Shown here piece after piece: positions 21,373 through 34,239 of a DNA stretch of 39,062 nt (positions are counted from its first letter, which is position 1; each line of letters begins with the position of its first letter). Source of the DNA: Candidatus Yanofskybacteria bacterium CG10_big_fil_rev_8_21_14_0_10_36_16 (GTDB taxonomy: Bacteria; Patescibacteriota; Minisyncoccia; 2-02-FULL-40-12; IGHO2-01-FULL-4-A). The DNA is taken from positions 1 to 39,062 of the forward strand of contig PCXQ01000002.1 of assembly GCA_002794035.1 (NCBI GenBank). The letters run 5' to 3'. The notes under the pieces are model-generated. The model was given only the letters and a program-made list of their open reading frames with translations. It was not told the origin of the DNA and did not search any database. The translations under genes and the position numbers were made by a program.

Positions 21373-22923
21373 TTATATCTGTGCACAATCATGAGGCGTA
21401 TAGCCTGGGAGACAATATTCTCCAGAAGCCGGAGCACCGCACAAAATTGCCTGCTCCTGTGTTCCACTGTAGCTACACCTAAAGAAGGGCTGACAACCTC
21501 CGCCGGCAACAAGACATTCTTCTCCTGTGTACTGATAATCATACACAGTTCCTCCTGTTCCATACTGATCTGGCGTCAAATTTGTATCATAATTCAAAGA
21601 ATCTAGGTTTCTCAGACACTGTAGCCATTCATGGTAATAGTCATATCCGTATTGTTCACCGCATGTTTGGAAGCTGCCTTCAAATTGTTGTTCACAAAAT
21701 GCTGCCTTATCAGCTTCATATTCGGGTAAATTGAACCACTGCAAACAATCCACATAGCCTCCTTCGTCCCTAATATCGAAAGGATGCCTGCAAACCCCTC
21801 CCTCTTTTTGTTTTATGGTTGTTTCATTGCCGTCCGCATCAATACAATCAACATAAAGATAATCGCAATTGTCAGCATTAAAAACACATTCTGGCGGTGG
21901 TTCATATATTGGATCATTATGTCCATAAACCCATTCCTGTATAGGCGTCGGGCTGGCAAACACAATCTGTCTTGTGGGTATCGGAATGGAAGTTGGGGTA
22001 GGAATTTTTATTTCAGGAATCTCCAAACCAACAACATTGGTGGGTAGTGGAGGCGGTGGAGGGGGAGGCAGTGGTAGTGGGGTTTGATTAGCTCCAGCAA
22101 TAATCAAAGCATCAGCCTGAGCCTGAGACACCATCTCAAGACCCTTTGGCAATGAGCCCCCTACTATAGAAAAAGTGTAGGGAGTCGTCCCGCCAGCTGC
22201 GTGTACTTCTTGATAGTACCATTCATTAACAACGCCTGTAGCTAAAAAGCCTGTTGTAAATCTAACTATTGAACAGTCGGAATTTTGCGCGTGAGCTTCA
22301 TCTATTAATCTAAAGTTATAAGACACTTGCCGTATACTGCTTCCAGAATTTGCAGATCCCTGAAGTATGTCGAGTGTATAGGCTCTGGTACAACTATTTC
22401 CATTTGAATCAACAACTCTGAAAGACAATGGGAATGACCCCACAGCTTCCTGAGCTTCAGCTTGATTAATCAAGCCATTATTTGGTTCTGACTGAAGAGC
22501 GCCCTGAATAAACCCATTAACAAAACCAAGAATTACGACATTGTTGTTAACTACAACCTGCTGTTGCCCGCCTCCTTGAAAATTGTTTTGATTATTTAAA
22601 ATTTTAAAGAAATCAAAAGTATTTTGTGTTAAAGCAGGGTTTATGACATTCAATATCAGCCATGAAGCCAAAAGTAAAATAGCCCCAATTATGGCCTTTT
22701 GCATTTTATCTTTGGCTCCAGAAATCGCTCCAGAGTTGCCTGCTGCTGTCAGCCACTGGAATCCAGCTCTTAAAAACTGGATGAATACAGCAAGACCAAC
22801 AACCAAAAAAGCAAACCTATAAATTTGAACAATTAAATCAGCTATTCCTTCTTCGTCTTCTCCTACTAGGGATGGAATTTCGACCTGGGCATTTGCAATT
22901 TTGAACAGCAAATAATCTAACAT
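21373..22923 (-). CDS. TrbC/VirB2-like (T4SS pilin-like) N-terminal membrane domain fused to Ig-like, poly-Pro and Cys-rich extracellular regions
   Basis: N-terminus IYRFAFLVVGLAVFIQFLRAGFQWLTAAGNSGAISGAKDKMQKAIIGAILLLASWLILNVINPAL follows the CPR pilin-like two-TM pattern. GGTTPYTFSIVGGSLPKGL is Ig-like. Also PLPLPPPPPPPLPT and at least 16 Cys in the last ~170 aa. Confidence 0.5.
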   Translation of the reverse strand: MLDYLLFKIANAQVEIPSLVGEDEEGIADLIVQIYRFAFLVVGLAVFIQFLRAGFQWLTAAGNSGAISGAKDKMQKAIIGAILLLASWLILNVINPALTQNTFDFFKILNNQNNFQGGGQQQVVVNNNVVILGFVNGFIQGALQSEPNNGLINQAEAQEAVGSFPLSFRVVDSNGNSCTRAYTLDILQGSANSGSSIRQVSYNFRLIDEAHAQNSDCSIVRFTTGFLATGVVNEWYYQEVHAAGGTTPYTFSIVGGSLPKGLEMVSQAQADALIIAGANQTPLPLPPPPPPPLPTNVVGLEIPEIKIPTPTSIPIPTRQIVFASPTPIQEWVYGHNDPIYEPPPECVFNADNCDYLYVDCIDADGNETTIKQKEGGVCRHPFDIRDEGGYVDCLQWFNLPEYEADKAAFCEQQFEGSFQTCGEQYGYDYYHEWLQCLRNLDSLNYDTNLTPDQYGTGGTVYDYQYTGEECLVAGGGCQPFFRCSYSGTQEQAILCGAPASGEYCLPGYTPHDCAQI

Positions 22924-27025: not shown

Positions 27026-27280
27026 ATGGATAAAAAATACCTAACAGTAAAAGAAGTGGCAAAACTTGTCGGAGTAACCCCTCTGACAATTCGTAACTGG
27101 GATAAAGCCGGTAAACTTATTGCCCATAGAAATCCCGTAAATAATTATAGGGTATATAAAACGGCAGATGTAGATAAACTAGTAGAAGACATTGAGGGAA
27201 GCAAAGGAAAGACATTCCCCCGCCCGCCAAAAGAACCGCCCAAACCAAAAACAAAAAAACTAATGATTGAAGAATTATAA
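27026..27280 (+). CDS. MerR-type / excisionase-like HTH DNA-binding protein
   Basis: LTVKEVAKLVGVTPLTIRNWDKAGKLIAHRNPVNNYRVYKTADVDKL is a MerR N-terminal HTH with no effector domain. Pro/Lys-rich tail. Confidence 0.7.
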   Translation: MDKKYLTVKEVAKLVGVTPLTIRNWDKAGKLIAHRNPVNNYRVYKTADVDKLVEDIEGSKGKTFPRPPKEPPKPKTKKLMIEEL

Positions 27281-27311: not shown

Positions 27312-27563
27312 TTAAGCCAAAAAGAAGTTTTTCCAGATAGCTACAACACATGAAATTGTATAAATCAAAGTTAATGTAAAAACACCGAATTGCTTATTGC
27401 GCCATGCAGTTATAAACCAAAATGGTTCCGTGGTAAAAGTGAGCACAAAACCCCAAGGAGCCCATGGATTGCCGACAGCTATCATAAAAAAGCCGATACT
27501 CCCAATTATCGCAATATACCACTGGCCAAACTTTTCAAAAGACACAAAACACCTCTTCTTCAC
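27312..27563 (-). CDS. small Trp-rich 3-TM membrane protein
   Basis: 83-aa ORF with a GTG start that overlaps the upstream gene stop (GTGA). Three hydrophobic helices; FWFITAWRNKQFG. Confidence 0.5.
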   Translation of the reverse strand: MKKRCFVSFEKFGQWYIAIIGSIGFFMIAVGNPWAPWGFVLTFTTEPFWFITAWRNKQFGVFTLTLIYTISCVVAIWKNFFLA

Positions 27564-28144
27564 GTTGTTGGATAAAAACCATCAGGAATGGGCATTCTTA
27601 CCAAATGAGCCTCTTCATACGGACGCTCCACTCGATTATAAATTTTCCATGTTCTAAGTCTTGTTTCTTCATGGGGGACCACGATTTTAGGATCACTACC
27701 TAAAATCTGGTTTTTCTCTTCATCAGTTGTCGGCCTAACTTCAAACAAGCCATTAAACGGATCTCGGACAAAAGTTGCTAAATCTTTTGCTGTCACATTT
27801 TGTATGGGAATGACCAGCCATACATACTGATTCCTTTCAAGAAACCACTTTGCCTCACTTGCCACACCAAGACCCAAGCGGCCATCCAGAAAAGGCACTG
27901 CGACGCAATTTGTGCAATGGGGCAATACTTCTTCATAATAATAGTTCATTCCCTTATGGTTAGTACTGCTCTCTACCTTTCTTCGGGCCCATTTGTCATA
28001 TCCCACCTGATGATGAGGTTGATTAGGATTCTCAATAAAATCCGAGTTTGAGCCGAATAATGTTCCGACAATCAACTTAACAAAAGCTTTCTCAACTGGC
28101 TTATTATAGGTATTAACTGGATGCGCAAAATACATTTTTTTCAT
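27560..28144 (-). CDS. hypothetical protein (weak resemblance to nucleoside 2-deoxyribosyltransferase-like fold)
   Basis: 194-aa ORF with SD AGGAG. N-terminal MYFAHPVNTY and VPFLDGRLGLGVASEAKWFLERNQYVWLV recall the beta1 strand and the D..G..E patterns of that superfamily. This is pattern impression only. TGA stop. Confidence 0.5.
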   Translation of the reverse strand: MKKMYFAHPVNTYNKPVEKAFVKLIVGTLFGSNSDFIENPNQPHHQVGYDKWARRKVESSTNHKGMNYYYEEVLPHCTNCVAVPFLDGRLGLGVASEAKWFLERNQYVWLVIPIQNVTAKDLATFVRDPFNGLFEVRPTTDEEKNQILGSDPKIVVPHEETRLRTWKIYNRVERPYEEAHLVRMPIPDGFYPTT

Positions 28145-28246: not shown

Positions 28247-28879
28247 TTATTTGAGGTTTTGATTTACATTTTCCCTAATTTTTTTAAAAATTTTATATGA
28301 TTGCATTGCGCCATTTAATGCTGTATGGGGATAAGGCTCTTGTTTAATACCTAGCCGCTTGGAAATTTTGCCGGATCTAACACTAAACTCTCTGGGATCA
28401 TATATTACATTTGGCTCAAGCAATTCTTGAACAGCCATAGAGCGGGTATCTAAACGCGTATAGTGAAAAAATCTTGATAAATCTTCATTCAAAATATCAC
28501 AACAAACAAAAGCTACCTGTAAAAAATTCCAATCAAAGAAAAAATTGTGTCCTGTTGGAATAATTTTTTCCTGCCATTGACCCAAAAATTCGAAAAGTTT
28601 TTTTAAAGCACAGTTCAAAGATACAGCATCGTTCCACTCCCCATTAAATGCGCGCTTTGGATATTCATTAATTAAATTAGAAATGCATCTCTCGGGATGT
28701 TGTGGGTTTATTTTTATTTCGAACTCACCCAACTTATCAAAGTTAGGTTGGTCAGCCACGACCATTCCTATTTCAATAATTTCATGCCACGGGACTAAAA
28801 CATTACCGACTTTTTTTAAAGGATCATGCCCAGTTGTTTCAATATCAATAAATCCAAAAATGTATTCTTCTTTGGCCAC
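28247..28879 (-). CDS. DEDDh 3'-5' exonuclease (DnaQ/RNase T-like)
   Basis: ExoI FIDIETTG, ExoII GHNFFFDWNFL, ExoIII HTALNGAMQ. GTG start with AGGAG 7 nt upstream. Confidence 0.8.
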   Translation of the reverse strand: MAKEEYIFGFIDIETTGHDPLKKVGNVLVPWHEIIEIGMVVADQPNFDKLGEFEIKINPQHPERCISNLINEYPKRAFNGEWNDAVSLNCALKKLFEFLGQWQEKIIPTGHNFFFDWNFLQVAFVCCDILNEDLSRFFHYTRLDTRSMAVQELLEPNVIYDPREFSVRSGKISKRLGIKQEPYPHTALNGAMQSYKIFKKIRENVNQNLK

Positions 28880-29002
28880 AATTTTCTCCTGTTTTTACTA
28901 AAGTGCTTAAACAAGCATAATATTATAAAAAACAAAAATCAACTGCCGATCTTTTTTATAAATTTTTTATTCAAAAATGTATAAAACTAAAATTAAAAAA
29001 TA

Positions 29003-29054
29003 AACCCCCGTTAAAACGGGGGTTTCTATCCCACACTCATACATGAGTGTGGGG
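29003..29054 (-). terminator. tandem hairpins after the ~940-aa gene
   Basis: AAACCCCCG-ttaaa-CGGGGGTTT and CCCACACTCAT-aca-TGAGTGTGGG. On the minus strand the second hairpin is followed by a T run. Confidence 0.7.
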
Positions 29055-29069
29055 GTTTATTTAAATTTT

Positions 29070-31880
29070 TTAAACCGCTTTCGGTAAAAACTTATTCCAG
29101 TTAAATGATTTAGGATTTGCAAACCAATCTCTCAAATAATCATGCGGTAACATCTGCACAAGAATCGGACCTTCTTCGGGCCCACCAGCGGGAATGCTCA
29201 CAAAGCACACACCGGTGTTGTTGGGAGGAAATCCTCCTGAAGAGCCGTACATATTGGTATGGACGCTTGCTGCGCACATAATATATGTTAAATGATTAAC
29301 TTCAGCCTTGGCATAAAAGTGTTTATCACCATAAAAAGTAACTGTGGCAGTTTTTAAGAGACCATATGAATCATCTCCTCGGGCCAAATCATTTCGTATA
29401 ACTGATTTTAGAAGGTCAGACCAGCTTGATAACTTAGCCGGCGTACCATGGACCCTCATGCCCCAAGGATAACCATCGGGCGCTTGGACCGTACCCCAGC
29501 CAAATGTCTCATTGCCAAATCTGGGCGCTCTAATTGATTTACTCAAAAAATCAGGATTGTTTTTAAGATATTTTTGCCAAAACGGAAGTTGGGCAAGTTT
29601 TTCCTGCAAGTGGCGTGCAATATAATCGCCTTCAAGATCTCTTTGGTCAAGGGTTTTAATACGGTGATTACCATTAGGAAAATTGTGAATAGCCAAATCT
29701 CGCGTATCCACCATGCTTTTGTGGAAATCACTAATGCCGCGAATATTCAAACCAGATTTAACAAATCTTTCTAAAACTGCGCTATAAAAATCGACATTCG
29801 GGTCGATGTGTCGTTCATAAACCTGCATCATCTGATGGAACGGAAAATCTTCGCCCCTAAAATAAAGCTGTGAAATACTTACGCGATTAATATCGCTAGT
29901 TATCTCACGAACAAGTTCATGATCCCCTTGCTCAGAGGCCCTTTGAAGGTCAGAGGTCATTTGCAATAACCACCGTTCAAAATGTAAAATTTTCATTCGC
30001 TCAGGATCTGGCCGATAGCGAGGATTAAACCACATGTCGCCATTGGTAGCATCATCCATCTCGGCAGTCATGTGCAACCCAATATCTTTTGCATTAATTA
30101 CACCCTCACGACGCATCAACTCAATAGCCGCCTCTGTAACGCCAAGGTGGATCTTCTGAGCGGGGTCCCAAATATACCTTTTGTCAGGAGCACCAAAGTG
30201 GTTATCTGTGTTTAAGAATACATTAATATACTCTGTTTTGGGATAAGGAAAAGCAAAATTTTGATTATAAAACGGCCTGTCCTTATCCAATCTAGAAATT
30301 GGCAAGGATATGGTGTTGAGAATACCGTTACTCCAAGAAAGCAATAAAACTCCAGGCTTAAACATGGGGTTGTTCACCAGCTTTTGAACCTTGTGAACTT
30401 CCCTAATATTATTTCTAAATTCATCACGCAAAAAAACGTCATCAAGACAGCTGGGAGCAACAGCAACAAACTTTGTAACAGGCTTCCCATCTATGGAATC
30501 TTCTCTGCCCACCAATCGATGGTCTAAAGCAAATGGATGGCAAATAACAGTGAGATCAGCCAAGGTATCAGCAAACACCTCTGCGCCATAGGAATCGCCA
30601 TAACTAGCAAGCAACGAATCAGTAACCCTCTCGTGCTTAGGAATATGCGCTTTAACAATATGTTTATGAAGTTTAAAATATGCACTCCCCTGGCTAATAA
30701 CTTTAGCGTTAGGGATTGCTTCCTCAAACTTTTTAACAACAAAAGCTGTTATCTTGCGATTGAAGTATCTATAGTGACGATTATGTATGTTGCTTTGAAT
30801 TGTTCTAGCTTTTTTTCTGGTTAAGCGCATAACTTCGCTATCCCAATGTCTTATTTCACTAGTGTCATTGTCTTTCCTTGCTTTGGAAAAGCGCGACTTG
30901 GCCATGTTCAGCTCAGCTTCAATTTTCTTTTCTTTAACAATTTTTAAATACCTGCACTGATAATATGAAGCTGCCCTGATTAATTCCTCTTCTTTAAGGC
31001 CGAACATTATATACACAGGCCCCGGAAATTCTGGACCCTTATTTCTCGGCCTATGAGAAATTTTATGTAAAGCATCAATAATCTCATTAAACTTTTCTTC
31101 TAATGTCTGATAAATTAAATCATCAGTTATATTTCCTCTCAAAATATCTATAACTTCTTCCCGATATTCCTCAGGAAATCTTTTGGGGTTTGCTTCTAGT
31201 CCTGATACCTCAGCACGATAAGCCGCTAAGGGTCCCGCGGTCTTTTTTGACCAAAGGTCTAAGATGTTAACAAAAATCACAGCCTTAGCCCCGCGATTTC
31301 TAGCATCAGCAAAAGCTCGTCTTGTCGTATTACTTTCAATGTCGGGATACTTAATGCCGATAAGAGAACCATTAATAATAGATACCTGACCTTCTGGTTC
31401 CTCAGAAATAACGAAGGGGTTACTATAGGAATTATCAGGAAATTCATAATTCTCCAATCCTTCAGGAAGGTCGTCCAAAGAAGCAAAACGACCCATACCA
31501 GCCTTAAACTTAACAATAGATGATGATGTATTGCTGGTATAACCCTTTTTGGACTTCACTCTTTTCCTAATAATGCTTTTTGGTATATGAGGATGTGTTT
31601 CTTCAAATTTAGAAAGCATATCATTACCAACAGCTCTCCAAAGAAGCTTATCTACATCAGGTGTCCAGATTAATTCATCAAGGCGACTACTAATCACCTT
31701 TTGAGTCATAGTTGAACCGGCTAACTTATCGTGAAATTCTTCATTAATAATTTGGCAAATCTTGGCCAAACCACCATCCTGATTAAGCAATTGCTGGACC
31801 AGTTCTTTGCAACGCTTCTCTAATCCTGAGATTTTCCATATCTCTCTTTTCCTGTTTTTTTGATTAACTTCCTCAGACAT
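29070..31880 (-). CDS. large uncharacterised protein: Myb/SANT-like N-terminus, degenerate plus intact metallophosphoesterase-like halves
   Basis: Start placed at MSEEVNQ (31880), where AAGGAGG lies 5 nt upstream; the track start at 31898 has no SD. WTPDVDKLLWRAVGND is SANT/Myb-like. C-terminal half carries ordered MPE-like motifs NTDNHFG, DDATNGDMW, NGNHR, YGDKH, ASVH. In the N-terminal half the corresponding positions are non-catalytic (IINGSLIG, FVNILDLW). Confidence 0.6.
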   Translation of the reverse strand: MSEEVNQKNRKREIWKISGLEKRCKELVQQLLNQDGGLAKICQIINEEFHDKLAGSTMTQKVISSRLDELIWTPDVDKLLWRAVGNDMLSKFEETHPHIPKSIIRKRVKSKKGYTSNTSSSIVKFKAGMGRFASLDDLPEGLENYEFPDNSYSNPFVISEEPEGQVSIINGSLIGIKYPDIESNTTRRAFADARNRGAKAVIFVNILDLWSKKTAGPLAAYRAEVSGLEANPKRFPEEYREEVIDILRGNITDDLIYQTLEEKFNEIIDALHKISHRPRNKGPEFPGPVYIMFGLKEEELIRAASYYQCRYLKIVKEKKIEAELNMAKSRFSKARKDNDTSEIRHWDSEVMRLTRKKARTIQSNIHNRHYRYFNRKITAFVVKKFEEAIPNAKVISQGSAYFKLHKHIVKAHIPKHERVTDSLLASYGDSYGAEVFADTLADLTVICHPFALDHRLVGREDSIDGKPVTKFVAVAPSCLDDVFLRDEFRNNIREVHKVQKLVNNPMFKPGVLLLSWSNGILNTISLPISRLDKDRPFYNQNFAFPYPKTEYINVFLNTDNHFGAPDKRYIWDPAQKIHLGVTEAAIELMRREGVINAKDIGLHMTAEMDDATNGDMWFNPRYRPDPERMKILHFERWLLQMTSDLQRASEQGDHELVREITSDINRVSISQLYFRGEDFPFHQMMQVYERHIDPNVDFYSAVLERFVKSGLNIRGISDFHKSMVDTRDLAIHNFPNGNHRIKTLDQRDLEGDYIARHLQEKLAQLPFWQKYLKNNPDFLSKSIRAPRFGNETFGWGTVQAPDGYPWGMRVHGTPAKLSSWSDLLKSVIRNDLARGDDSYGLLKTATVTFYGDKHFYAKAEVNHLTYIMCAASVHTNMYGSSGGFPPNNTGVCFVSIPAGGPEEGPILVQMLPHDYLRDWFANPKSFNWNKFLPKAV

Positions 31881-31987
31881 AAAACCTCCTTTTCTCATAT
31901 AAGAATTTTAAATGTTCTTGCATTAATACTATCTTTATAAAAAACTGTAACAACTTGTCTTTAATTTTTTTGCGTTGTGTTACAACC

Positions 31988-32016
31988 AAAAAAACCGCTC
32001 TTATGAGCGGTTTTTT
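31988..32016. terminator. hairpin separating the small-peptide gene from the ~940-aa gene
   Basis: aaaaaaCCGCTC-ttat-GAGCGGtttttt. Confidence 0.7.
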
Positions 32017-32077
32017 GAATATAGATATCCACAATTAAATTTATTGCGACATTTATAGGTTATATAAAAAGAAAGAT

Positions 32078-32106
32078 CCGCTGTTCCTGTGCATCAGGAA
32101 CAGCGG
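32078..32106 (-). terminator. 12-bp perfect hairpin terminator of the small-peptide transcript
   Basis: CCGCTGTTCCTG-tgcat-CAGGAACAGCGG, followed on the minus strand by atctttcttttt. Confidence 0.7.
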
Positions 32107-32134: not shown

Positions 32135-32233
32135 CTATTGCTCCGGCCCACAGGCCGGATGATCCTTTAGCGACGGTGCGAGCACCATCGCTAACAGAAT
32201 CAGAAACACTGGAATAATCAGAACGTACTGCAT
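32135..32233 (-). CDS. 32-aa hydrophobic peptide (candidate small membrane protein or toxin)
   Basis: TTGTAA-17 nt-TATAAT (32268-32263) with an extended TG, SD AAGGGAGG, and ATG at 32233. Translation: MQYVLIIPVFLILLAMVLAPSLKDHPACGPEQ, TAG stop. Local GC is about 50%, clearly above the surroundings. Confidence 0.5.
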   Translation of the reverse strand: MQYVLIIPVFLILLAMVLAPSLKDHPACGPEQ

Positions 32234-32362
32234 GGCAGAACCTCCCTTACCTAACTATTTATATTATAACACAAAATATGTATTATTACAAGTGCTGCAA
32301 ATATCGCCTCCCGAGTTAATTATACGAAAATAGAGCTTATTTTTTAAGTTGTTGAATAGAAT

Positions 32363-32381
32363 TGCGGGGGCACATGGACTC
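32363..32381 (-). repeat. 19-nt copy of a tRNA 3' end (T-loop end + T stem + acceptor + discriminator)
   Basis: Plus strand tgcgggggcacAtggactc is 18/19 identical to 32483-32501. Confidence 0.7.
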
Positions 32382-32484
32382 CCTTCGACTCATTGCATTC
32401 GCTCAGGATAAACTTCTCGTCCTATCACAAAAAAAACGGCAAGTTCAGCATAAATCTAAAGCTTGCACTGAGTTTGCAAAAGTG

Positions 32485-32509
32485 CGGGGGCACCTGGACT
32501 CGAACCAGG
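32485..32509 (-). pseudogene. orphan tRNA 3' fragment (Trp-like): T arm + acceptor 3' strand + discriminator G
   Basis: Minus strand reads CCTGG-TTCGAGT-CCAGG-TGCCCCC-G. No D arm or anticodon arm lies upstream of it. Confidence 0.7.
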
Positions 32510-32646
32510 AAGTTCGGTTTTGTCCCGATTTTTCTTCCCCGCCTTAGCGGGGTTAGAAAATCAAGGATCCACGATTTTGTAATCTTGCTTCAGTAAGAAC
32601 AAAATCAGGAGAGACTAGTGATTTGCTTCACCTACCCAAATTTTTG

Positions 32647-32718
32647 CGGGAGTAGTAGGACTCGAACCTACAGTCCTGGTTTTGGAGACCAGTGGTTTGC
32701 CAATTAACCGATACTCCC
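32647..32718 (-). tRNA. trnW: tRNA-Trp (anticodon CCA)
   Basis: GGGAGTA TC GGTT AATTGGCA AACC A CTGGT CTCCAAA ACCAG GACT GTAGG TTCGAGT CCTAC TACTCCC G folds as a full cloverleaf. CCA is not encoded. Confidence 0.93.
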
Positions 32719-32740
32719 ACACAAAGCAAAAACTTGGGCG

Positions 32741-32762
32741 GGCAAGTTAAGCTTATACCCCC
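32741..32762 (-). pseudogene. orphan tRNA 5' fragment (Trp-like acceptor 5' strand + D-arm remnant)
   Basis: Minus strand GGGGGTATAAGCTTAACTTGCC. GGGGGTA pairs 7/7 (one G-U) with the TGCCCCC of the orphan 3' fragments, and it resembles the 5' region of the intact tRNA-Trp. Confidence 0.45.
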
Positions 32763-32896
32763 AAGAAAGCAAATTTTAAAACTTTACTCGTTTGCTCAAG
32801 TTCAAGATAAAATCAAGATTTGGAACGAAGCGTACTTAAAAGTACGTTGAGTTTCAAAGCGACGATTTTAACAAAGAAATTGGTCGAACCAGAAAG

Positions 32897-32943
32897 GCTA
32901 ATTTCGGAATAAGCCCTTCCGTATTTGGGCTTCCGAAATTAGC
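32897..32943 (-). terminator. 13-bp hairpin downstream of rpmG
   Basis: GCTAATTTCGGAA...TTCCGAAATTAGC. Confidence 0.55.
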
Positions 32944-32956
32944 GAGTAGTTTTAAT

Positions 32957-33115
32957 TTATTTTTTGCTTTCCTTATGAGTTGTGTGCTTCCTGCACCACT
33001 TGCAGAATTTTTTAAATTCCAGCTTTCTTTCAACTAATTTTTTGTTCTTGGTTGTATAGTAGTTGAATCTTTTGCAGTCTCCACACTTCATTTTTAACAA
33101 ATTATCTTGTGACAT
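32957..33115 (-). CDS. rpmG: 50S ribosomal protein L33
   Basis: Not in ORF track (52 aa). [52 protein letters not shown] has the CxxC...CxxC L33 pattern. Confidence 0.9.
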
Positions 33116-33198
33116 TATTTTAATTTCTGATCTCTGGTTTCTTGTTTATGATTTTATACCAGCTACAAAATACCAGCTACCAGCTACTAAACTTATGA

Positions 33199-33270
33199 GC
33201 CGACGGTGAGAATTGAACTCACGACCTACTCCTTACCATGGAGTTGCTCTGCCTCTGAGCTACGTCGGCT
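33199..33270 (-). tRNA. trnT: tRNA-Thr (anticodon GGT)
   Basis: GCCGACG TA GCTC AGAGGCA GAGC A ACTCC ATGGTAA GGAGT AGGTC GTGAG TTCAATT CTCAC CGTCGGC T. Confidence 0.92.
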
Positions 33271-33436
33271 TTAGCTAGCTCCTCTTGATTTAATTGTGAG
33301 CCAGGAGGCGATGAAAGACAAGGGTTTGGCTTTCATCCTCAATTTTATAAATTCTTTGTCTTTAAGTCGATCATGTGCCGTTAAAAAATTGAGCAGAACA
33401 TACCTAATGCCAGTTCAAATCTTTCTGTTTTCATTT

Positions 33437-33480
33437 CTTATCTCAGGATAATATTTTTTTAAATATTATCCTGAGATAAG
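33437..33480. repeat. 20-bp perfect inverted repeat (hairpin, 4-nt loop)
   Basis: CTTATCTCAGGATAATATTT-tttt-AAATATTATCCTGAGATAAG, directly abutting the tRNA-Tyr 3' fragment copy. Confidence 0.85.
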
Positions 33481-33482
33481 AT

Positions 33483-33495
33483 TGTGGGCCGGGAG
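33483..33495 (-). repeat. 13-nt duplicate of the tRNA-Tyr 3' end
   Basis: tgtgggccgggag is identical to 33662-33674 (acceptor 3' strand and start of the T stem, plus 2 trailing nt). Confidence 0.7.
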
Positions 33496-33499
33496 TGGA

Positions 33500-33660
33500 G
33501 ACAAAGTGAACTGCTTCACTTTGTCCAGAATTTTAACGTAGCGTCCTCGTGGAGTGTTTAAAAATTCTGTCGAACCCTGTCGAGCAAAGCTCGACTTATT
33601 CGAATATTTCCATATTCTATTGTCTTAAATTAATTGGATTTTAATCCAATTAATTTGAGA
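33500..33660. repeat. train of four further hairpins between tRNA-Tyr and its 3' duplicate
   Basis: 33500-33525: 11-bp perfect. 33526-33569: about 11 bp with a 1-nt bulge. 33579-33595: 7-bp perfect. 33623-33660: 14-bp perfect palindrome extending to about 18 bp. Confidence 0.8.
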
Positions 33661-33663
33661 CTG

Positions 33664-33747
33664 TGGGCCGGGAGGGATTCGAACCCCCGTAGGTCTAAGA
33701 CCGCGTGGTTTACAGCCACGTGCGATTGGCCACTCCGCCACCGACCC
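33664..33747 (-). tRNA. trnY: tRNA-Tyr (anticodon GTA), class II with long variable arm
   Basis: GGGTCGG TG GCG GAGTGGCCAAT CGC A CGTGG CTGTAAA CCACG CGGTCTTAGACCTAC GGGGG TTCGAAT CCCTC CCGGCCC A. Confidence 0.92.
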
Positions 33748-33756
33748 ATATGATAC

Positions 33757-34006
33757 TTATTTTAAAAGTTTTTTAAATGCCTCACCACCTTTATATTTTT
33801 TAATTTGTCTCTAGTGTCTTAAAGCCACTTCTTTGCTATTATGCTGTTCATAAAATTCTTAATATTAACGGCCGACGATTTTTCGTTGATTTAGTAGCGC
33901 CACTGTTATGTTTTTCAATTCTATTTTTTATATTACTTGTTGAGCCAATAAAATATTTACTATCTTTTTTACTTTTTAATACATAAATATACCATTTTTT
34001 ATCCAT
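33757..34006 (-). pseudogene. decayed GIY-YIG (URI-domain, COG2827-like) endonuclease gene
   Basis: MDKKWYIYVLKSKKDSKYFIGSTSNIKNRIEKHNSGATKSTKNRRPLILRIL* (TGA at 33850-33848). The +1 frame then continues EFYEQHNSKEVALRH*RQIKKYKGGEAFKKLLK*. That makes one frameshift and one in-frame TAG at the conserved Glu position. Confidence 0.75.
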
Positions 34007-34037
34007 AAATCCTCAGACCGCCCTGCTTATAGAGGGA

Positions 34038-34089
34038 TGCGATTGGCCACTTTTTAACCCCGCCAAGGGCGGTGGCCGCCACCGACCCA
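34038..34089 (-). pseudogene. tRNA-Tyr 5' fragment (nt 1-13 and 15-27) split by a ~24-nt GC-rich hairpin insertion
   Basis: Minus strand reads GGGTCGGTGGCGG-[ccaccgcccttggcggggttaaaaa]-GTGGCCAATCGCA. Both blocks are identical to the intact tRNA-Tyr, and the sequence diverges afterwards. Confidence 0.75.
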
Positions 34090-34163
34090 ATTTTTAATAA
34101 TATACCCTACTTTAACCCAAAAAACAAGAAAAACGGTGAATTTACCGTTTTAAACATATCATA

Positions 34164-34239
34164 TGGAGCCGCCTCGCAGATTCGAACTGCGGACCTTCAC
34201 TTTACAAAAGTGTTGCTCTAACCACTGAGCTAAGGCGGC
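34164..34239 (-). tRNA. trnT: tRNA-Thr (anticodon TGT), CCA encoded
   Basis: GCCGCCT TA GCTC AGTGGTTA GAGC A ACACT TTTGTAA AGTGA AGGTC CGCAG TTCGAAT CTGCG AGGCGGC T CCA. Confidence 0.9.

Follow-up and report, generated by a model that had tools for sequence, protein, structure and literature searches.

A stretch of 39,062 nucleotides from Candidatus Yanofskybacteria bacterium CG10_big_fil_rev_8_21_14_0_10_36_16 (contig PCXQ01000002.1; hereafter the window, which always means the whole stretch) encodes on its minus strand a 936-aa protein (29070..31880), both halves of which have, with high confidence, the metallophosphoesterase (MPE) fold, the C-terminal half being of the active type and the N-terminal half catalytically dead. 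Four parts would follow each other along the chain, namely a basic helical head, a flexible basic linker, an Mre11-like MPE domain without metal ligands, and a second MPE domain with ligands. As an overall explanation, we consider it on balance probable that this is a cytoplasmic enzyme specific to Patescibacteria, with a dead and a live MPE domain, acting most likely as a metal-dependent nuclease. Within the well-known MPE superfamily, both the family and its domain architecture are new. Residue numbers given below refer to the 942-aa numbering, which starts from the upstream ATG at 31898, and conservation has been assessed in a first alignment of 26 closer homologues and in a broad alignment of 56 homologues reaching down to 17% identity.

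Using a 26-sequence alignment, AlphaFold2 has modelled the whole chain with a mean predicted local distance difference test score (pLDDT) of 82.2 and a predicted template modelling score of 0.77, low confidence being limited to residues 1-17, 119-134, and 887-889. Searched with Foldseek against the viral library BFVD, this model has returned nine matches at E<=1e-3, eight of which are annotated as metallophosphoesterase or calcineurin-like, with E-values from 7.6e-07 to 9e-04 and the best at probability 1.00; phage proteins called 'DNA polymerase II small subunit' have been found slightly lower in the same list, which also contains phage proteins of 'ApaH type'. Against the PDB, the best matches of the whole chain are the DP1 subunits of PolD (E 0.02, range 0.02-0.1), accompanied by Schizosaccharomyces pombe Mre11 (E 0.1) and, lower down, by human Mre11 and SMPDL3B. 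The structural check that the earlier note had proposed for its Metallophos assignment has thus come out in favour of the fold, through the viral matches and, weakly, through DP1 and Mre11. As Foldseek reports a single alignment per target, residues 7-548 have been folded separately, and the resulting model (pLDDT 77.7) has Mre11 structures as its top 13 matches in the PDB (E 5.9e-3 to 0.15, probability up to 0.98), which span 430-470 aligned columns at TM-scores of only 0.25-0.34 and are followed by Rv0805, YmdB, a Mycoplasma MPE phosphatase, and calcineurin. Since all of these top 13 matches are Mre11, the N-terminal half is itself an MPE fold, and folding of this half as an unrelated domain, the outcome that would have spoken against a tandem arrangement, has not been seen. 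DP1 is not among the listed matches of this N-terminal part, and for this reason the DP1 matches of the whole-chain model most likely come from the C-terminal half.

The C-terminal MPE domain (residues 546-942; 29073..30263, minus strand, as are all further protein features) has been assigned from motif conservation together with the BFVD and DP1 matches. In this half, five calcineurin-type motifs in their canonical order had been noticed from the window sequence, of which DxH, (G/D)D, GNH, and G(D/H)xH are indeed conserved, with H567, D616, G743, H745, and H860 present in 56 of 56 homologues, whereas the proposed fifth motif, ASVH (29259..29270), is unconserved, its H880 being found in 16 of 56 and the neighbouring position 882 being Asp in 42 but Asn in the window protein. 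Motif I (TDNHFG, 30192..30209) follows the family pattern [T/S/G]-[D/C]-x-H-x-G, in which D565 is Asp in 49 and Cys in 7 homologues and G569 is kept in 54. Motif II (DDATNG, 30039..30056) corresponds to [D/G]-D-x-x-[Q/H/N]-G, with Asp at position 615 in 33 homologues and Gly in 21, the latter giving the classic 'GD'. Motif III (GNH, 29664..29672), recognised by its conservation in the broad alignment, has N744 in 50 homologues (Asp in four, Gln in two), and the residue after it is not Asp or Glu but Arg in the window protein and mostly Phe in the family. The GDKH motif (29319..29330; family G-[D/H]-x-H) stands after the strand 852-856, with G857 in 55 of 56 and position 858 as Asp in 49 and His in 4, so that the first His of a GHxH is usually replaced by Asp; it is likely a better counterpart of the canonical GHxH than ASVH. 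All of these motifs follow predicted strands (557-563, 610-613, 738-739, and 852-856), as expected of an MPE.

Taken together, of the seven canonical positions for ligands of a di-metal site, six are filled (D565, H567, D616, N744, D858, and H860). Four of them show little or no variation across the family, while D565 is replaced by Cys alone and D858 mainly by His, both of which also bind metals; judged from the alignment, the replacements seen at ligand positions (Cys or His for Asp, Asp or Gln for Asn) are chemically sensible, as they exchange one metal-binding side chain for another. The seven proteins with Cys in motif I (G-C-x-H-x-G; P0153, P0158, P0161, P0162, P0164, P0171, and P0188) form a divergent subgroup without the head and have Gly at position 882. 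Between motifs II and III, a three-helix insertion of 79 aa (residues 637-715, 29754..29990; helices 637-656, 660-681, and 686-715) carries Q689 in 56 of 56 and Q677 in 46 of 56 homologues. A family-specific loop, GFPPNNTG (29211..29234), is invariant in the 26 closer homologues, and its N894 is Asn in 42 and His in 7 of the 56. Conserved polar residues have further been observed at E756 (51/56) and R840, both in the segment 745-857, and at D734 and D882, the last being Asn in the window protein, which also has Met at position 622 where the family has His or Asn. Together with the loop, the residues Q689, Q677, D734, E756, R840, and D882 are candidates for substrate contacts.

In the N-terminal domain (residues 141-545, 30264..31478), which has been delimited from the separate model and its Foldseek matches, the places of the catalytic motifs have been located by secondary structure and are taken by other residues. 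At the place of motif I, the window protein has INGSLIG (31356-31376) and the family I-N-[G/A/S]-x-x-x-G, with N176 in 43 and G181 in all 56 homologues. At the place of motif II stands AVIFVNILD (31257-31283; family D-A-V-h-h-T-[G/N]-[N/G]-L), and a 'PGD' has been kept in P0162 alone, while at the place of motif III stands VYIMFGLKEEE (30984-31016; family G-x-x-E-E-E). No conserved histidine has been found anywhere in this half among the 56 homologues. A three-helix coiled-coil insertion of 94 aa (residues 301-394, 30717..30998; helices 301-343, 346-368, and 373-394) follows the third strand. The earlier suggestion of an internal duplication with one inactivated copy has therefore been borne out as far as the MPE fold of the N-terminal half and the replacement of its catalytic positions are concerned, but no significant sequence signal between the two halves has been obtained with hhalign (5.8% with the first and 16.5% with the broader alignment), and a duplication may be inferred from the shared fold of the models.

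The basic helical head (residues 7-118, 31545..31880) consists of six predicted helices (26-37, 43-54, 66-77, 80-91, 95-101, and 107-117), which are arranged as two three-helix units, and is followed by a basic linker (residues 119-140, 31479..31544) with conserved G119, G134, and G136, which is predicted to be disordered, pLDDT lying below 50 for 119-134. Across the family, the median isoelectric point is 9.8 for the head and about 10 for the linker; the head is missing from the most divergent members. A SANT/Myb signature had been proposed here from the string WTPDVDKLLWRAVGND (31620-31667), which has been checked by translation. Indeed, the second head unit has W78 in 47 of 56 homologues and F98 in at least 90% of the 26 closer ones, and the spacing W78-x20-F98, with helices 80-91, 95-101, and 107-117, falls into the register of c-Myb, but the third aromatic residue of SANT/Myb repeats is absent and its position not conserved. 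Compared with c-Myb repeats, the second unit has reached a probability of 29% in hhalign, neither the protein nor the head on its own matches a Pfam Myb/SANT model at E<=10, and no Myb/SANT structure is among the best 50 Foldseek matches of the N-terminal part. Accordingly, what is left of the SANT/Myb proposal is a resemblance in pattern, and the head may be described as a basic module like a helix-turn-helix (HTH), plausibly Myb-like, which is unproven. Longer homologues have N-terminal extensions rich in modules of the type 'W-T-x-E-D-x-x-L ... W ... R' ('WTKGEDNRL...'), and the extension of P0048 gives a sub-threshold match to Myb_DNA-bind_6 (E 0.0095, 16.5 bits against a cutoff of 22.9); two others show faint GcrA matches, and the headless P0161 has a faintly GcrA-like N-terminus. 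Repetition of the head units as modules has been rejected, as hidden Markov models of both units have found no second copy in any homologue.

Regarding the distribution of the family, a first homology search has returned 43 proteins, mostly of 909-1171 aa besides a few shorter fragments, which are named 'hypothetical protein' or not at all and which, where their source is named, come from Candidatus Paceibacterota and Lloydbacteria. When 1.84 billion cluster representatives (clusters at 50% identity) were scanned exhaustively with HMMER, only 195 members were obtained, including the divergent subgroup of 830-1030 aa that has no head. Two peptide patterns searched against 185,579 GTDB species genomes have located 48 loci, nearly all in metagenome-assembled genomes of Patescibacteria, with Parcubacteria, Yanofsky-, Giovannoni-, Lloyd-, Sungii-, Taga-, and Azambacteria among the lineages; many are labelled merely 'Saccharibacteria', and one short contig of 3.3 kb is labelled as a Methanosarcinales archaeon. 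The window sequence itself has been found in groundwater and aquifer metagenomes. No relatives have been detected by tblastn among 50,697 phage records or 72,556 plasmid records, and PADLOC gives no match for the protein. In the window, the gene is surrounded by rpsB, tsf, a release factor gene, genes of TPR proteins, YceG, a small HTH protein of MerR/BldC type and a DEDDh exonuclease, and in relatives an order rpsB-tsf-TPR ... gene - MerR - TPR - YceG is stable across genera, within an even GC content of about 0.31-0.41 that shows no compositional island. The family is thus lineage-specific to Patescibacteria and chromosomal, and the synteny from rpsB-tsf to MerR-TPR-YceG, together with the lack of PADLOC matches and of phage or plasmid relatives, would fit a housekeeping role.

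Known families have not been reached by sequence from any side. The Pfam search that had been suggested for Metallophos and Myb_DNA-binding has given no match for the window protein at E<=10, PHROGs has given none either, and NCBIfam noise alone; among 10 divergent and 8 long homologues Pfam has found nothing relevant, and no homology match carries a precomputed Pfam domain. With the family profile, all PDB sequences have been searched at E<=10 with no match. Attempts to bridge the gap have failed, as the exhaustive profile search has returned family members alone and a word-indexed search with the 56-sequence alignment has reached no further. We attribute the failure of profile searches to the divergence of the family and not to a difference in fold. 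Literature searches on Patescibacteria or Paceibacteria with Mre11 or metallophosphoesterase, and on tandem, inactive, or degenerate MPE domains, have found no description of such a protein, so that, together with the empty results from Pfam, PHROGs, NCBIfam, PADLOC, and PDB profiles, the earlier statement that no described family has this combination still stands.

Among known systems, Mre11/SbcD comes closest in several respects, as it shares the MPE sandwich fold with both halves, is the top structural neighbour of the N-terminal half, and has motifs I, II, III, and a GHxH-like motif in the same canonical order as the C-terminal half; by analogy, the two MPE domains may also stand together as they do in the Mre11 dimer. 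In contrast to Mre11/SbcD, however, the window protein has both domains on one chain, one of them inactive, shows no detectable sequence similarity and no match to SbcD_C or to the Mre11 DNA-binding domain in Pfam or NCBIfam, has no SbcC/Rad50 nearby, and carries large three-helix insertions and a helical head, and no conserved motif IV His has been found in it. It falls outside the Mre11/SbcD family in sequence, partner, and accessory domains, whereas in fold and motif logic it corresponds to an MPE of the Mre11/SbcD/DP1 branch. PolD DP1 and the B-subunits, with DP1 as the best whole-chain match in the PDB (E 0.02), differ from the window protein, which is bacterial, has dead and live copies on one chain, no detected oligonucleotide/oligosaccharide-binding (OB) fold and no polymerase partner nearby. 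Phage MPEs such as the 'metallo-dependent phosphatase domain protein' of Streptomyces phage BRock (A0A1J0GW60) give the best structural scores (probability 1.00), but have a single domain in 250-480 aa, reach 9-10% identity, show no tblastn similarity, and are uncharacterised in function. In the lariat debranching enzyme Dbr1, an MPE, the Asp of motif I is replaced by Cys, and the same exchange has been seen in 7 of the 56 family members, namely in the headless divergent subgroup; the window protein, in contrast, has Asp, and Dbr1 is not among the listed Foldseek matches. Two MPE domains on one polypeptide are known from exported proteins of the Bacillus YfkN type, in which both are active and each is accompanied by a 5'-nucleotidase C-terminal domain, whereas the window protein has one dead half, no match to such a C-terminal domain, and no apparent signal peptide.

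Taking these neighbours together with the basic head and linker and the HTH/Myb-like pattern of the head, we lean towards a nucleic-acid substrate, and by analogy a nuclease acting on nucleic acid is about as probable as all other activities combined. In the mechanism that we favour, the C-terminal half would bind two divalent metals of the Mn2+ or Fe2+ type and cleave phosphodiester bonds, the dead N-terminal half with its coiled-coil arm would serve as a built-in partner or scaffold, and one chain would thereby imitate the two-domain arrangement that Mre11/SbcD reaches by homodimerising. Head and linker would hold the nucleic-acid substrate, and the enzyme would act at DNA or RNA ends as an exo- or endonuclease, with a housekeeping function such as repair, processing, or turnover.

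Several observations weigh against this explanation. No sequence profile identifies the protein as an MPE, neither at E<=10 in Pfam nor in the PDB profile search (0 matches each), and the E-values of the PDB structure matches are weak (0.006-0.1) at TM-scores of 0.25-0.36. For the C-terminal half, the fold is predicted from the motifs, from DP1 matches that are missing from the search with the N-terminal part, and from the viral matches. Aligned by hhalign with a profile based on Escherichia coli SbcD, the two halves have reached 0.4% and 1.5%, the profile being too shallow (Neff 1.65) because its search had returned SbcD at >=78% identity alone; the motif registers in these alignments agree with the assignment, but are without statistical weight. 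Within residues 745-857, no conserved His that could serve as motif IV has been found among the 56 homologues, E756 and R840 being the conserved polar candidates for its place, and as H880 is also unconserved, the site for metal B may lack a ligand or be of an unconventional type. No SbcC/Rad50-like partner is encoded in the neighbourhood in the window or in four further loci (L001-L004). Finally, only structural neighbours and charge suggest the substrate, and MPE enzymes include protein phosphatases, nucleotidases, and cyclic-nucleotide phosphodiesterases.

A more specific version of the nuclease explanation, which we hold to be unlikely as it stands, describes the protein as a single-chain, 'pseudo-dimeric Mre11' nuclease restricted to Patescibacteria, in which the dead MPE and its coiled-coil arm would replace the second protomer and Rad50/SbcC, and the Myb-like head would direct it to DNA or RNA ends. 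If it were true, the protein would be a minimal, ATP-independent end-processing enzyme for bacteria with reduced genomes or, as an alternative within the same proposal, a debranching or processing enzyme for the intron-rich RNAs of these bacteria.

Equally unlikely is a small-molecule phosphoesterase, be it a nucleotidase or a phosphodiesterase for nucleotides, cyclic nucleoside monophosphates (cNMPs), 2',3'-cNMPs, or dinucleoside polyphosphates, with a task in salvage or signalling. The MPE motif set is common to such enzymes, bacteria of the Candidate Phyla Radiation (CPR) have a limited nucleotide biosynthesis, the cNMP phosphodiesterase Rv0805 and YmdB appear among the lower matches of the N-terminal part, and 'ApaH type' phage proteins in the viral list, but Rv0805 and YmdB have been matched at E 0.6-0.9 and in the dead half, whereas the best structural neighbours, Mre11 and DP1, are nucleases. 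A gene for an NT5C 5'-nucleotidase lies near the family gene in L001, and a recurrent neighbour of 194 aa, described below, could be a salvage enzyme; these neighbourhood links are weak, however, and the gene orientation varies. Moreover, 936 aa with a basic head and a scaffold domain would be oversized for such a function.

An accessory subunit of replication or repair, similar to PolD DP1 and the B-subunits, with a proofreading or end-trimming exonuclease and the dead domain as a docking module, has to be regarded as quite improbable. It would agree with DP1 as the top whole-chain match in the PDB and with the 'DNA polymerase II small subunit' phage proteins among the viral matches, and it has a general precedent in eukaryotic polymerase B-subunits, in which inactivated MPE domains act as scaffolds; in the window and in two other loci the family gene is also adjoined by a gene for a DEDDh exonuclease. 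On the other hand, these structural matches are weak, an OB fold, by which DP1 and the B-subunits are defined, has not been detected, no gene for a polymerase or partner is conserved nearby, and the gene is monocistronic; in the loci inspected, no SbcC/Rad50, polymerase, or defence partner has been found.

Still less probable is a non-catalytic structural or regulatory protein, in which both MPE domains would be pseudo-enzymes, the conserved residues of the C-terminal half would have been retained for ligand sensing or for folding that depends on metal, and the head would be a DNA-binding regulator. The missing motif IV His, the variable H880, the residues M622 and N882 of the window protein at positions of His or Asn and of Asp in the family, and the HTH-like head would fit such a role, but an invariant H745, the general acid or transition-state His of MPEs, and a ligand set retained at 17% identity are typical of active enzymes, and the dead N-terminal half shows how relaxation looks in the same protein. 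A nuclease effector of defence or of a mobile element, to which phage MPE proteins as the best-scoring structural matches and a truncated GIY-YIG reading frame and an excisionase/MerR-type HTH in the neighbourhood might point, is hardly credible in view of the empty PADLOC result, the lack of tblastn matches in the phage and plasmid records, the stable synteny among ribosomal and cell-envelope genes across genera, and the lack of a compositional island.

Regarding the gene itself, the open reading frame (ORF) extends over 29070..31898 on the minus strand (942 codons), beginning with the in-frame ATG at 31898, and contains a second in-frame ATG at 31880, which is preceded at a distance of 7 nt by AAAGGAGG and gives 936 aa; the database entry P0001, with 100% identity to the window protein, has the same length. 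The true start is probably this second ATG, and the coding sequence has been set to 29070..31880 from the ORF, the AAAGGAGG site, and the length of P0001. Because of the same site and length, the interval that the earlier note had given fits the likely coding sequence; the ORF is genuine, and all peptide strings quoted from it have been found at positions verified by translation. Two hairpins follow the stop codon (29002..29054, minus strand), the second of which (29025-29002) is a canonical intrinsic terminator, and two terminator-like hairpins upstream (31988..32106, minus strand; 32106-32078 and ~32016-31988, the latter with a T-run) would end the preceding unit. As terminator-like hairpins are thus found on both sides of the gene and on the strand of the gene itself, it forms a separate transcription unit, in agreement with the earlier claim, and these signals predict that it is monocistronic. 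In the promoter region, two copies of TGTWACAAC (31946..31986; starts at 31946 and 31978, 32 bp apart) are present as had been described, and they overlap -35-like TTGTWA hexamers. Their number is statistically marginal, as the whole window contains the motif 3 times where 0.63 occurrences would be expected, a count that is reached by 2 of 100 shuffles, and the core motif does not occur upstream of 43 homologous genes. The repeat has been dismissed as an operator by this absence, and the copies may be specific to the lineage or strain or due to chance.

In the neighbourhood, the DEDDh/RNase T-like 3'-5' exonuclease gene (28247-28879, minus strand) lies directly downstream with a promoter-like site of its own, and it is not a conserved partner, since the same position has been seen in two other loci only (L029 and L031). 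An ORF of 194 aa (27560-28144, minus strand) recurs within about 1 kb downstream of the family gene in at least seven loci, distant ones included (L001/L002, L011, L023, L026, L029, and L035), and within 4 kb in 12 loci, in varying orientation; searches of Pfam, NCBIfam, PADLOC, and PDB sequences have returned nothing for it, and it is a possible functional partner. The MerR/BldC/excisionase-type HTH gene (27026-27280, plus strand) is separated from the family gene by two genes in the window, is found directly downstream and convergent in many relatives (L004, L005, L006, L014, L015, and L037), and lies within 4 kb in 19 loci. Farther away, downstream of YceG, a protein of 516 aa (21373-22923, minus strand) has an N-terminal type IV secretion system pilin domain (PF18895, E 1.9e-06).

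Upstream of the gene, four tRNAs on the minus strand (32646-34239; Trp, Thr-GGT, Tyr, and Thr-TGT) are spaced by about 400-480 bp and not clustered, and their spacers hold a likely gene for ribosomal protein L33 (32957-33115, with CxxC...CxxC) and a truncated GIY-YIG-like ORF of 52 aa (33848-34006). Next to the latter, the 5' two-thirds of tRNA-Tyr have been duplicated in part (34012-34089 against 33695-33748; segments of 40 nt at 73% and 14 nt at 100% identity, separated by a 24-nt insertion), giving a copy at which ARAGORN and Rfam call no tRNA and which may be the scar of a mobile-element insertion. A 22-nt repeat occurs three times (32360-32381, 32480-32501, and 32642-32663, spaced by 120 and 162 bp), and as the third copy overlaps the 3' end of tRNA-Trp, the other two may be remnants resembling tRNA ends. 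The hydrophobic 32-codon ORF MQYVLIIPVFLILLAMVLAPSLKDHPACGPEQ (32135-32233, minus strand), preceded by GGGAGG and followed by the strong terminator 32106-32078, could be the gene of a small membrane peptide. A perfect 21-nt inverted repeat with a 4-nt loop (33436-33481) in a tRNA spacer draws spurious matches to miRNA models alone, and permissive searches of the 2.3-kb upstream gap with Rfam and ARAGORN (intron and low-score options) have found nothing credible beyond the four tRNAs.

Much of bacterial diversity belongs to the CPR/Patescibacteria, in which a considerable part of the conserved proteome lacks a functional assignment. A large, conserved, and unannotated family of 195 clusters, for which no Pfam, NCBIfam, PHROGs, or PADLOC model exists, has now been placed in the MPE superfamily, and a profile model of its own would end its annotation as 'hypothetical protein'. 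The domain map and the likely catalytic residues that are now defined allow a direct design of mutagenesis and activity assays. The MPE fold as such is ordinary, whereas the arrangement of a dead and a live MPE on one chain gives a clear, testable hypothesis and offers a natural case of a pseudo-enzyme domain beside an active, paralogue-like partner. This architecture may show how genome-reduced bacteria simplify Mre11-type machinery.

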